DNA of 37,123 nucleotides from a virus (Duplodnaviria; Heunggongvirae; Uroviricota; Caudoviricetes): positions 1 through 37,123 of the IMG/VR virus record IMGVR_UViG_2713896795_000003; one strand, written 5' to 3'. The position numbers were made by a program, and so were the translations under genes. Below the pieces are notes generated by a model. That model was not told the origin of the DNA, ran no database searches, and saw nothing but the letters and a program-made list of their open reading frames with translations. Positions 1,370-31,645 of this stretch are shown in pieces (positions within the stretch are counted from its first letter, which is position 1; each line of letters starts with the position of its first letter).

Positions 1370-1677
1370 GCTGCTTCTCCAAAAATGTGTCTGCGCTTGA
1401 ATATTGCGAAGGCATATTCAGCCTTAACTCTTTCGGTTATTGCATCCCAGAACCATTCAGCGGCTTTTTCCTGATAGTTACAGTCATCATCTTCCAGCCA
1501 GTCGATAGCGTCCTTAGTGTGTTCATCTGGTTTATATGAGCGAAGCATTTCGCTTATTGGGTCGCAACGTTTGCAGAGGCGATCAACTTCACTGTTGATT
1601 CGTTCGTAATCTTCATCAGTAAAACTTGCGATTATTTGCGATATTTCACGCTTATCATTCAGAGTCAGAATCATCAT
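1366..1677 (-). CDS. Hypothetical early-left protein (103 aa)
   Basis: ATGATG start with AGGAG SD; stop overlaps recT start (ATGA). Confidence 0.6.
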   Translation of the reverse strand: MMILTLNDKREISQIIASFTDEDYERINSEVDRLCKRCDPISEMLRSYKPDEHTKDAIDWLEDDDCNYQEKAAEWFWDAITERVKAEYAFAIFKRRHIFGEAA

Positions 1678-14720: not shown

Positions 14721-14927
14721 ATGGCAGAGATTATTCCCATGACTGAAGAACAGAAATTCCAGTTAGAGATTTACAAGCTGGTCATGAACCAGAACGCAGC
14801 CGCAGAAGAAGCATTTCAATTCATTGGCACTGACGAACTGAAGCTTGAGCTATTCAAAATTCACTTCCAGTCAGGCGGCGCTAATTCAGATATCACGACC
14901 CGCACTATCGAAGCGGTACGTAAATAG
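14721..14927 (+). CDS. Hypothetical small protein (68 aa)
   Basis: ATG with GGAG SD; upstream of terminase small subunit. Confidence 0.5.
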   Translation: MAEIIPMTEEQKFQLEIYKLVMNQNAAAEEAFQFIGTDELKLELFKIHFQSGGANSDITTRTIEAVRK

Positions 14928-29712: not shown

Positions 29713-29991
29713 TCAGCTTAATTTTTTTGATTCTTCGTGTTGAGAAACTATATACTTAGCCAGTTCAAGAAGTTGATTTTCACTCATGCGAATGTTGGCA
29801 ATTTGGTATCTAACTGGCTGAATCTCCTCATTATTAACCCAGTCTGAAACATGCTTAAAAAATGCTATTGAACCAAATCTTGCTCCGACATCCCCAAAAG
29901 ACGAGTAAGCAAATCCATCAGCATACTCATTTACAGCATCACTTGAGTCCTTGAAGATGGTTTCTCTGAAGTTCACTTTGGTATCTGTCAT
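29713..29991 (-). CDS. Hypothetical protein (92 aa)
   Basis: ATG 2 nt after mnt stop with AAGGA SD inside mnt 3-prime end (translational coupling). Confidence 0.55.
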   Translation of the reverse strand: MTDTKVNFRETIFKDSSDAVNEYADGFAYSSFGDVGARFGSIAFFKHVSDWVNNEEIQPVRYQIANIRMSENQLLELAKYIVSQHEESKKLS

Positions 29992-29993
29992 AT

Positions 29994-30242
29994 TTATTTA
30001 TCCTTACCATACATGGTCTTTAGCGTCTCAACATCGTGTTCAAGATCTATCAATCGTGATGCTATAGTTGCAAGGTCTAGTGCTTGAATGTGTTTATTTT
30101 TTTCGGTCCACGCTTCAAGTGCCGCGACCATCTCAGCATTTAATGAACGAGAATTAGCCTCAGCAAGTTCAATAAGACGTTCCTTTATCTCTACAGGAAG
30201 CCTCAGATTCACTTGAGGGTTTTTGTACTTACGATCAGACAT
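29994..30242 (-). CDS. mnt: Mnt-like ribbon-helix-helix repressor
   Basis: 82 aa; RHH motif VNLRLPVEIKERLIELAEANSRSLNAEMVAAL resembles P22 Mnt, plus C-terminal helical tail; divergent from arc. Confidence 0.65.
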   Translation of the reverse strand: MSDRKYKNPQVNLRLPVEIKERLIELAEANSRSLNAEMVAALEAWTEKNKHIQALDLATIASRLIDLEHDVETLKTMYGKDK

Positions 30243-30263
30243 CGCCGCATCCTGAATAATTTT

Positions 30264-30335
30264 TTACCACAGGATATGTAGGTATCTATTGACTATCAAT
30301 GCGTACCTAAATACTATGTATGCGTACCACATACA
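30264..30335. promoter_or_regulatory. Divergent overlapping promoters (Pmnt leftward, Pant rightward) with palindromic operators
   Basis: Pant -35 TTGACT 30289-30294 / -10 TACTAT 30312-30317; Pmnt -35 TTGATA (plus 30294-30299) / -10 TATCCT (plus 30271-30276); nested palindrome TAGGTA...ATTGA-cta-TCAAT...TACCTA 30279-30309; palindrome TGTATG-N7-CATACA 30317-30335. Confidence 0.5.
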
Positions 30336-30347
30336 ACGGAGGATACA

Positions 30348-30488
30348 ATGAAGGTTAAAACACTGCGTATGCCAGAGAAGCTAGAAAAAATTCTTGAAGA
30401 AAAAGCAAAGGAAGAGTGTCGCTCATTCAGTGCAGAAGTAATTAAACGGGTGCTGGACAGCCTGAAGAGGGAGGGGGTAACAGTGTGA
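30348..30488 (+). CDS. arc: Arc-like ribbon-helix-helix repressor (46 aa)
   Basis: Hand-translated MKVKTLRMPEKLEKILEEKAKEECRSFSAEVIKRVLDSLKREGVTV resembles P22 Arc; GGAGG SD 7 nt before ATG. Confidence 0.6.
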   Translation: MKVKTLRMPEKLEKILEEKAKEECRSFSAEVIKRVLDSLKREGVTV

Positions 30489-30658
30489 TTTGCTTGGATG
30501 CAGTAGTCAAAGAGATTGTGCTTACCATTTTGAGACCAAATTTTGTTCATGGCGAATCATTTGGCGCGAACGAAAAATTGAGAAGAGAAAGAGTATTCAG
30601 TGGCAAGCGCACGTTTTCAGAAGTGATGCTTGATGCGGCAAAGAAATCAAAACAGTGA
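30485..30658 (+). CDS. Hypothetical small ORF (57 codons, GTG start)
   Basis: GTG overlaps arc stop (GTGTGA) with G-rich SD; no ATG alternative; may instead be non-coding spacer. Confidence 0.2.
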   Translation: MICLDAVVKEIVLTILRPNFVHGESFGANEKLRRERVFSGKRTFSEVMLDAAKKSKQ

Positions 30659-30721
30659 AGCCCCAACTGCGGGAACAGTCAGGGCTTCGGTATCGTAAAA
30701 CCACGCATAGGAATTAACGAC
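30645..30721 (-). ncRNA. sar: Candidate sar-like antisense RNA covering the ant translation initiation region
   Basis: Minus-strand promoter -35 TTGATA (plus 30751-30756), 17-nt spacer, -10 TATACT (plus 30728-30733); minus-strand hairpin GAAGCCC...GGGCTTC (30657-30688) followed by U-rich tract. Confidence 0.4.
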
Positions 30722-31645
30722 ATGAAAAGTATAGCAACAGCAGTATCTACTATCAATGTACCATTCCACGGCGCAGAGCTTTATGTTGTCAATCACAACG
30801 GCGAACCGTACACCCCAATGAAACCTATCGTTGAGGGAATGGGGCTAGACTGGAAATCTCAACATAAGAAGATTTCTCAACGCTTCTCGAAGGGTATGGT
30901 GGAAATCACCATACCTTCTGCCGGTGGGGTGCAAGCCATGATTTGTATGGCTTTACGAAAATTGGCAGCTTGGTTGAACAGCATCAGTCCTAACAAAGTC
31001 CGCCCTGAAATCCGCGACAAGGTAATCCAGTATCAGGAAGAGTGTGACGATGTGCTCTATGAGTACTGGACTAAAGGCCATGTGGTTAACCCGCGCAAAG
31101 CTAAAAAGGCGTTGCCGGGGAAAATCACCACTGAACAGCAGGAAGCCATTAAACAACTCGTCATGAGTCGTGGTCAGTCTCTGCCAAAAGAAAAACAGGC
31201 GAAGGCAATGATTACCATGTGGTCGTCACTGAAATCCCATTTTGGATGTTCGTACAAAGAAATCAGTGAGGAGCAGTTTACAGAAGCACTGTCACTTGCA
31301 GCTCGAGTTCCACTTGAAGGTGAGTTCATTGGCAAACAAGAGAAGAAAGCAAACGAGCTTTCTGCAAAAGAAGCAAACAGCCTTGTATGGCTATGGGATT
31401 ATGCCAACCGCTCACAGGCATTATTCCGCGAACTTTATCCGGCATTAAAACAAATTCAATCGAACTATTCCGGCAGATGTCATGACTGCGGTTATGAGTT
31501 CTCCCGTATTATCGATATAGCGAGAGACGTTTTAATCAATCACTCACGAGATGTTGATATCAATGAGCCAGACGGACCAACGAATCTTTCCGCATGGATG
31601 AGACTTAAGAATAAAGAATTACCTCCTTCAGTACATAACTACTGA
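30722..31645 (+). CDS. ant: Antirepressor Ant
   Basis: 307 aa; N-terminal region ...LYVVNHNGEPYTPMKPIVEGMGLDWKSQ...LRKLAAWLNSISPNKVRPEIRDKVIQYQEECDDVLYEYW resembles P22 Ant from memory; follows mnt/arc. Confidence 0.8.
   Translation: MKSIATAVSTINVPFHGAELYVVNHNGEPYTPMKPIVEGMGLDWKSQHKKISQRFSKGMVEITIPSAGGVQAMICMALRKLAAWLNSISPNKVRPEIRDKVIQYQEECDDVLYEYWTKGHVVNPRKAKKALPGKITTEQQEAIKQLVMSRGQSLPKEKQAKAMITMWSSLKSHFGCSYKEISEEQFTEALSLAARVPLEGEFIGKQEKKANELSAKEANSLVWLWDYANRSQALFRELYPALKQIQSNYSGRCHDCGYEFSRIIDIARDVLINHSRDVDINEPDGPTNLSAWMRLKNKELPPSVHNY

Follow-up and report, generated by a model that had tools for sequence, protein, structure and literature searches.

How is transcription arranged between two divergent ribbon-helix-helix (RHH) repressor genes that resemble mnt and arc of phage P22, when the operators between them are unlike those of P22? 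The question is raised by positions 30264–30335 of a 37,123-nt stretch of Caudoviricetes DNA (IMG/VR record IMGVR_UViG_2713896795_000003), which was analysed at its full length and is called the window here. This segment is the transcriptional control hub of the CUS-3-type immunity-I (immI) module (mnt/arc-ant, also termed the 'ant moron') of a P22-like prophage, and it lies in the 105-bp gap (30243–30347) that separates the divergent mnt-like and arc-like genes. Taken together, the evidence indicates that it probably comprises two promoters, Pant and Pmnt, and an array of three operator sites for RHH repressors. The control region is a widespread, uncharacterised variant of the P22 Arc/Mnt switch; it belongs to a known system and is not a new kind of element.

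P22 Arc and Mnt, together with their operators, are textbook models of β-sheet DNA recognition and promoter competition. In the window the parts list is as in P22 and the wiring is changed: the promoters stand back-to-back, the sites are three and phased, and the 'Mnt' protein carries the base-reading residues of Arc. The variant would offer a natural experiment in the co-evolution of RHH specificity and promoter geometry.

Two predicted back-to-back promoters

A search with the Mnt-like protein yielded 80 viral or prophage loci (49–100% protein identity), to which six further contigs were added, from Klebsiella, Citrobacter, Serratia, an Erwinia-like element, Shewanella and Xenorhabdus. The same core sequence was present in 83 loci, with the window counted as one, and in 35 distinct versions; these loci belong to elements of E. 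coli, Salmonella, Klebsiella, Citrobacter, Serratia and Shewanella and to Erwinia-like ones. Counts out of 35 below refer to these distinct cores, and single loci are numbered L001 and so on where they must be told apart. A promoter scan of the window returned the following hexamers.

30289–30294, plus strand: Pant −35, TTGACT; TTGACT or TTGACA in 35/35 cores
30312–30317, plus strand: Pant −10, TACTAT; TACTAT in 23/35 cores and TAATAT in 6/35
30294–30299, minus strand: Pmnt −35, TTGATA; kept in 31/35 cores, with the variants TTGAAT, TTGCTA and TTGCCA
30271–30276, minus strand: Pmnt −10, TATCCT; TAnnnT in 35/35 cores

Each promoter-like element has a 17-bp spacer and matches the consensus at 9 of 12 positions, and these two are the only promoter-like matches that the scan returned in the 105-bp intergenic region. 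An earlier, sequence-only reading of this DNA had proposed that the −35 hexamers TTGACT and TTGATA share one base pair. They do so at 30294 and, because of this overlap, the predicted Pant and Pmnt starts lie approximately 60 bp apart. Pant would run rightward into arc, orf57 and ant, and Pmnt leftward into mnt, both as σ70 promoters.

The same reading had proposed a back-to-back promoter pair, and conservation across the cores backs it. The Pmnt −10 element occurs as nine hexamers (TATCCT, TATTCT, TAATCT, TACTAT, TACTCT, TAACAT, TACCAT, TAATAT and TAGTAT), which stand 17 bp from the −35 element in all 35 cores. Conservation reaches 95% or more at positions 30271, 30275 and 30276, and positions 30272–30274 are variable. 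This combination of fixed anchors and a floating middle is the signature of a working σ70 −10 element. On the Pant side, TTGACT/A and TACTAT/TAATAT are separated by 17 bp in 29/35 cores. As a prediction from aligned sequences, the back-to-back promoter pair is well supported.

Three phased sites in a conserved core

Outside the promoter hexamers, the conserved bases fall into three unstranded 10-bp near-palindromes with the consensus TAGGTACCTA and a GTAC or GTAT core.

30279–30288: site A, TAGGTATCTA; 9/10 match to TAGGTACCTA, mean 8.7/10 over the 35 cores; in the Pmnt spacer
30300–30309: site B, TGCGTACCTA; 8/10, mean 7.8/10; in the Pant spacer, abutting the Pmnt −35 element, centre at about −40 of Pmnt
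30321–30330: site C, TGCGTACCAC; 6/10, mean 5.6/10; over the predicted Pant start

The centre-to-centre spacing from A to B to C is exactly 21 bp, and the three sites therefore point to the same side of the helix. Site A reads TGCGTACCTA in L080, TACATACCTA in L082 and L087, and the near-perfect TAGGTACCTG in L085 (Shewanella). Because site A takes the form of site B or C in diverged loci, the sites are interchangeable versions of one element. Judged against RHH repressors that use short symmetric boxes or have a bridging domain (CopG, MetJ, NikR and MatP), the size and dyad symmetry of each box fit one RHH dimer (PMC2724298). These repressors have no sequence relationship to the window protein beyond the RHH fold, and bridging of the 21-bp-spaced sites by the Mnt-like protein is a proposal only.

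Selection on the core is evident from its comparison with the adjacent gene. For this purpose, 26 distinct locus variants were used that have less than 70% third-codon-position identity in mnt. In these variants the third codon positions of mnt average 41% identity to the window, which is near random, and the 53-bp core (30278–30330) averages 88%, above the value for mnt codon positions 1 and 2. The leaders on both sides of the core cannot be aligned across the loci. As far as sequence comparison can tell, these data show the promoter geometry and strong purifying selection on the three sites.

The 31-bp palindrome to which the sequence-only reading had pointed (TAGGTA...TACCTA, 30279–30309, with nested ATTGA/TCAAT) is present and is enclosed by a larger one, and its second palindrome, given as TGTATG-N7-CATACA over the Pant start, is present as well.

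30275–30313, unstranded: imperfect 39-bp palindrome; 18-nt arms 30275–30292 and 30296–30313, 14/18 complementary, centre 30294
30317–30335, unstranded: 19-bp palindrome around site C, TGTATGCG-TAC-CACATACA; TGTATG-N7-CATACA, actually 8-N3-8 with 7/8 complementary

The 39-bp palindrome, like the 31-bp one within it, consists of both −35 boxes with site A on one side and site B on the other. Its inner ATTGA/TCAAT palindrome is simply the two −35 hexamers and is therefore not independent evidence for an operator. In the 19-bp palindrome the left arm is conserved; the right arm is moderately so, and is lost or re-spaced in L058–L062 and L069. For the conserved non-promoter bases, three 10-bp sites phased at 21 bp are a better description than a second palindrome.

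Natural lesions of the control region occur in some loci. L089 (around 1420–1500, reverse strand) has lost exactly 21 bp, so that site B is joined to site C and the Pant −10 element is missing; in L013 and L053, the Pant −10 element is TGCTAT instead of TACTAT. The ant operons of these loci may be silenced. Across the genome, the 10-mer is not enriched overall, with 9 matches observed and 6.1 expected. A further near-copy, TTGGTATCTA, is found at 29803–29812 inside the open reading frame (ORF) 29713–29991 downstream of mnt, and is probably a chance occurrence.

The two repressor proteins

The Mnt-like protein matches the Pfam family Arc (PF03869; E 3e-10), the solved N-domain of P22 Mnt (PDB 1mnt; E 3e-5, residues 8–51) and, over its full length, phrog_795 (E 7e-27). 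The Arc-like protein matches the same Pfam family (E 3e-8) and P22 Arc (PDB 1arq; E 2e-3), so that the mnt and arc identities proposed from the sequence hold. The family phrog_795 appears to be that of P22 Mnt, since both carry the label 'partition protein ATPase'. This label is attached to Mnt homologues in RefSeq phage records (NC_002371 mnt and SEN22 gp18) and in PHROGs; for an 82-aa RHH repressor, it looks like a propagated mis-annotation.

An AlphaFold2 (AF2) model of the Mnt-like protein, with a predicted local distance difference test (pLDDT) score of 76.6, has helices at residues 17–29, 34–48 and 57–79, corresponding to an RHH fold and a C-terminal helix. The latter helix scores about 80–90 in pLDDT in the monomer model, and sequence similarity to P22 Mnt ends before it, at residue 51. 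With Foldseek, the best structural match to the model was the Arc–operator complex (1par, probability 1.00). MatP, which is also an RHH protein, is among the weak matches, at ranks 19, 27 and 30. MatP has a C-terminal coiled coil, to which the C-terminal helix predicted in the Mnt-like protein may be likened.

The β-strand PQVNLRLP of the Mnt-like protein, with the preceding Y-K-N/H, is invariant in 39 homologues of 49–94% identity, in step with the invariant DNA. Alignment to the solved structures shows that its base-reading residues Gln10, Asn12 and Arg14 (Q10/N12/R14) correspond to Q9/N11/R13 of Arc, and not to H6/N8/R10 of P22 Mnt. In the Arc-like protein, alignment to 1arq identifies V3/T5/R7 as the reading residues. 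Both the N8/H8 change in the Mnt-like protein and two subtypes of the Arc-like protein adjoin the same DNA.

Comparison with known control regions

The immI regions of P22 and epsilon34 have the gene order and orientations of the window, with a Mnt-type repressor (RHH and C-terminal helix, the latter predicted in the window) that is divergent from a small RHH gene of the Arc type, the first gene of the ant operon. The sar antisense RNA across the ant start, candidate repressor sites at the start of Pant and within its spacer, and the location of immI between a gene-16 homologue and the tailspike gene are likewise common to all three. The promoters differ. In P22, Pant (14793–14821, plus strand) and Pmnt (14826–14798, minus strand) are annotated as interleaved within the same 34 bp, and those of epsilon34 are arranged likewise. 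Each P22 −10 element abuts the −35 element of the other promoter, the 21-bp Oarc fills the common spacer, and the 17-bp Omnt lies just downstream. The P22 starts are consequently approximately 37 bp apart, compared with approximately 60 bp for the back-to-back promoters of the window with their overlapping −35 boxes.

The sequence-only reading had regarded the window as the 'expected layout' for Arc and Mnt operators. That view is at odds with P22 and epsilon34, whose promoters are interleaved around a single Oarc. It was borne out in holding that the operator sequences are unlike those of P22: neither Oarc (ATGATAGAAGCACTCTACTAT) nor Omnt (AGGTCCACGGTGGACCT) has a match anywhere in the window at up to three mismatches, and among the loci compared the Omnt core was found only in those of P22 and epsilon34. 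Three 10-bp sites at 21-bp phasing are found in the window where P22 has its 21-bp Oarc and 17-bp Omnt, and orf57 is an additional gene between arc and ant.

The closest sequenced phage is CUS-3, an E. coli K1 phage (CP000711), with 94.8% identity over 75% of the query. Its 105-bp intergenic region has a handful of differences from that of the window, of which only the one at T30284 (G in CUS-3, in site A) lies within sites A–C. Unlike the window, CUS-3 has another mnt gene, of the P22 type, downstream, and a different ORF stands where the window has orf57. The control region and its three sites recur in Salmonella phage SEN22, whose mnt is more diverged, with DNA approximately 82% identical. 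In phiv205-1, Kapi1 and the Xenorhabdus prophage L084, the intergenic sequences are different again and were of no help in interpreting the window. Since these control regions are of yet other kinds, immI exists in several types.

A more distant parallel is OR of phage λ, where OR1, OR2 and OR3 lie between PR and PRM as 17-bp sites at 23–24 bp and are read by helix-turn-helix proteins. As in λ OR, three related, partly symmetric and phased sites in the window extend across two divergent back-to-back promoters, with one site on each promoter and the middle one abutting the −35 element of the maintenance promoter. Unlike in λ OR, the presumptive readers are RHH proteins, the sites measure 10 bp at a 21-bp period, and the promoters are closer, with overlapping −35 boxes; use of shared sites by both repressors is a proposal only.

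Proposed mechanism and alternatives

In a P22 lysogen, repression of Pant by Mnt favours Pmnt, and Arc expressed from Pant shuts both promoters (PMC2724298; PMC11016777). By analogy, it is proposed that in a lysogen of the window phage the Mnt-like repressor would occupy sites C and B on the Pant side, which are separated by two helical turns, silencing ant and leaving or favouring Pmnt. The Mnt-like protein would probably be a dimer of dimers joined through its C-terminal helix, and a dimer bound at site B would be located approximately 40 bp upstream of the Pmnt start. After infection, the Arc-like protein made from Pant would bind the symmetric centre (A and B and/or ATTG-N5-CAAT) and lower both promoters. 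Competition between polymerases is plausible because each would probably need upstream DNA that is occupied by the other. The mutually exclusive polymerase binding put forward in the sequence-only reading is likewise a proposal. This assignment of repressors to sites, which follows the P22 precedent, is tentative, and markedly less secure than the array itself.

Several observations weigh against the two promoters and three-site array as read here. Site C is a poor match to the palindrome (6/10), and the 21-bp centre spacing is twice the spacing used by P22 Arc and Mnt tetramers. Within the single sequence, the score of the large palindrome was equalled or exceeded in 32/2000 dinucleotide shuffles of the intergenic region (1.6%), and the 21-bp-phased triple repeat was reached in 31/1000 shuffles, which is only marginal. 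The 19-bp palindrome is at chance, with an equal score in 1377/2000 shuffles of the intergenic region. Tandem Repeats Finder reported no repeat. The genome-wide rarity of the degenerate 10-mer pattern was set aside as evidence, since the pattern was derived from the sites themselves and the test is circular. The evidence for real features is comparative, not statistical within the window.

The comparative data have their own points of resistance. Covariation of protein and DNA was sought across the loci as a means of assigning sites to repressors, and none was found, because the reading residues of both repressors and the sites are nearly invariant. Loci in which the Arc-like strand is PSSVRFP or PVSVRMP keep the DNA unchanged. 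The Pmnt −10 hexamers are pyrimidine-rich at positions 4–5 and complementary to the Shine–Dalgarno region of mnt; should the two pair in RNA, the start of some mnt transcripts must lie further upstream. Furthermore, the searched literature yielded no binding, footprint or transcription-start data for this type of control region.

The two-operator arrangement of the sequence-only reading, a positional analogue of P22 Oarc and Omnt, is possible, although doubtful. An Arc-like tetramer on the central palindrome (the 13-bp ATTG-N5-CAAT at 30288–30300, extended by TAGGTA/TACCTA) would block both −35 boxes, and a Mnt-like tetramer would bind the 19-bp palindrome at 30317–30335. The 4-N5-4 geometry of ATTG-ACTAT-CAAT is indeed shared with the operators of Arc (TAGA-N5-TCTA) and CopG (TGCA-N5-TGCA) (PMC2724298), but the element is inseparable from the two −35 hexamers, and its outer position 30288 holds G in place of A in L063, L065, L074 and L085. 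The 19-bp palindrome is placed at the Pant start as the 17-bp Omnt is in P22, with centres 32 bp apart compared with 28 bp in P22; however, besides its chance-level score, its arm spacing shifts from 7 to 4 to 0 bp in L069 and L058–L062. Moreover, two operators of this kind only partly explain the strong conservation of 30279–30288 and 30300–30309, the intervals that constitute sites A and B of the three-site array.

It is also conceivable, but unlikely, that the three TAGGTACCTA-like sites form a tripartite operator in the manner of λ OR, which both RHH repressors read but prefer in opposite order. Filling C and B cooperatively across two helical turns, the Mnt-like tetramer would then repress Pant; its B-bound dimer would permit or stimulate Pmnt, and the tetramer would fill A only at high concentration, leading to autorepression. 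The Arc-like dimer would prefer A, the most symmetric site, and shut Pmnt first. If true, a bistable switch in the style of CI and Cro would have been built independently from RHH proteins, on a module that is mobile through Enterobacterales and beyond.

A P22-like, interleaved Pmnt would have its −10 element at 30297–30292 (GATAGT), its −35 element at 30320–30315 (TACATA) and its start near 30285, giving a 43-nt leader in which AUCCUG/CAGGAU pairing masks the ribosome-binding site. The precedent of the interleaved P22 promoters speaks for it, as does a hairpin in the window (30249–30276, ATCCTG/CAGGAT) with a folding energy of −9.3 kcal/mol and z −2.0. Yet this Pmnt matches only 7 of 12 consensus positions and is absent from the promoter scan output. 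The invariant TAnnnT at 30271–30276 (35/35), with its fixed 17-bp spacer, is also hard to explain as leader RNA only. In most homologues, bases close to the −10 element can pair with the Shine–Dalgarno region through different sequences, but RNAalifold gave no consensus hairpin, and a conserved mnt-leader hairpin was rejected as a candidate in its own right on the same ground. An interleaved Pmnt is thus very improbable.

Least credible of all is conservation of the core as a recombination 'boundary sequence' exchanged between mosaic phages and not through repressor binding: the CUS-3 record does label the intergenic region to ant 'bsq2; boundary sequence' and the module is clearly mobile between phage types, but the conserved block spans only approximately 55 bp with diverged leaders and coding DNA on both sides, its variation is structured (the middle −10 positions are free, the hexamer anchors and site cores fixed), and the DNA-reading strand of the adjacent repressor is invariant too.

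Flanking genes

The control region is embedded in the following features.

29994–30242, minus strand: mnt-like gene; 82-aa RHH repressor with a C-terminal helix
30243–30263, minus strand: predicted mnt leader of approximately 21 nt, read from the sequence, with the start placed 7 nt downstream of the −10 element
30251–30254, minus strand: mnt Shine–Dalgarno AGGA, read from the sequence
30338–30342, plus strand: arc-like Shine–Dalgarno GGAGG
30348–30488, plus strand: arc-like gene; 46-aa RHH protein, first gene of the Pant operon
30485–30658, plus strand: orf57 (57 aa, function not assigned), between arc and ant; phrog_17642, E 6e-40
30654–30720, minus strand: sar antisense RNA; full-length match to Rfam RF00262, 76.6 bits (gathering score 43), E 1.5e-15
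30688–30657, minus strand: sar terminator-like site, from a sequence scan
30756–30728, minus strand: sar promoter TTGATA-17-TATACT, TG-extended, from the promoter scan
30722–31645, plus strand: ant antirepressor gene; Pfam P22_AR_N, E 6e-45, and P22_AR_C, E 5e-27

The ORFs, their Pfam matches and synteny with CUS-3 and P22 place the divergent mnt/arc-ant module of the window between the gene-16 homologue and the tailspike gene. As in P22, the sar promoter and terminator overlap the start of ant, and in the window the sar RNA overlaps the ant ribosome-binding site. A Pfam search with orf57 gave no match. Its GTG start codon overlaps the arc stop codon (GTGA). The window's version of orf57 is found in phiv205-1, and an unrelated Cys-rich ORF occupies its place in CUS-3.

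Distribution of the module

Of 5426 complete E. coli genomes, 184 carry the module, UTI89 and O104:H4 strains among them; in these, both repressor genes are labelled only 'Arc family DNA-binding protein'. It is also found in many Enterobacterales and in Shewanella. In L085 (Shewanella), L086 (Klebsiella) and L087 (Citrobacter), the mnt/operator/arc/ant module adjoins lambda-like tail-tip (GpJ), tape-measure or Big_2 genes, and is therefore a mobile moron whose range extends beyond P22-like podoviruses.

The searched literature contained no description of promoters or operators of this control-region type. According to the epsilon34 genome paper, arc is apparently absent from the ant morons of CUS-3 and HS-1, whose control of Ant may therefore differ from that in P22 (PMC2629481). 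In CUS-3 (L001), however, positions 1853–1993, which correspond to 30348–30488 of the window, hold the same 46-aa Arc-like ORF, which is intact and lies within the unannotated 'bsq2 boundary sequence'. The arrangement described here bears on whether CUS-3-type phages control Ant 'differently from P22', a suggestion made when their arc was overlooked.

It also bears on cross-immunity between prophages, as some of them carry two heterotypic mnt genes in tandem: CUS-3 (L001, 1217–1746), L019 and the Xenorhabdus prophage L084 (1245–1734). Such tandem genes may stack immunities against several immI types. The CUS-3 pair consists of a mnt of the window type followed by one of the P22 type, and no P22 Omnt was found in the 3.7 kb of this locus that was read. 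In the Xenorhabdus prophage, a mnt of another type comes first and one of the window type second.

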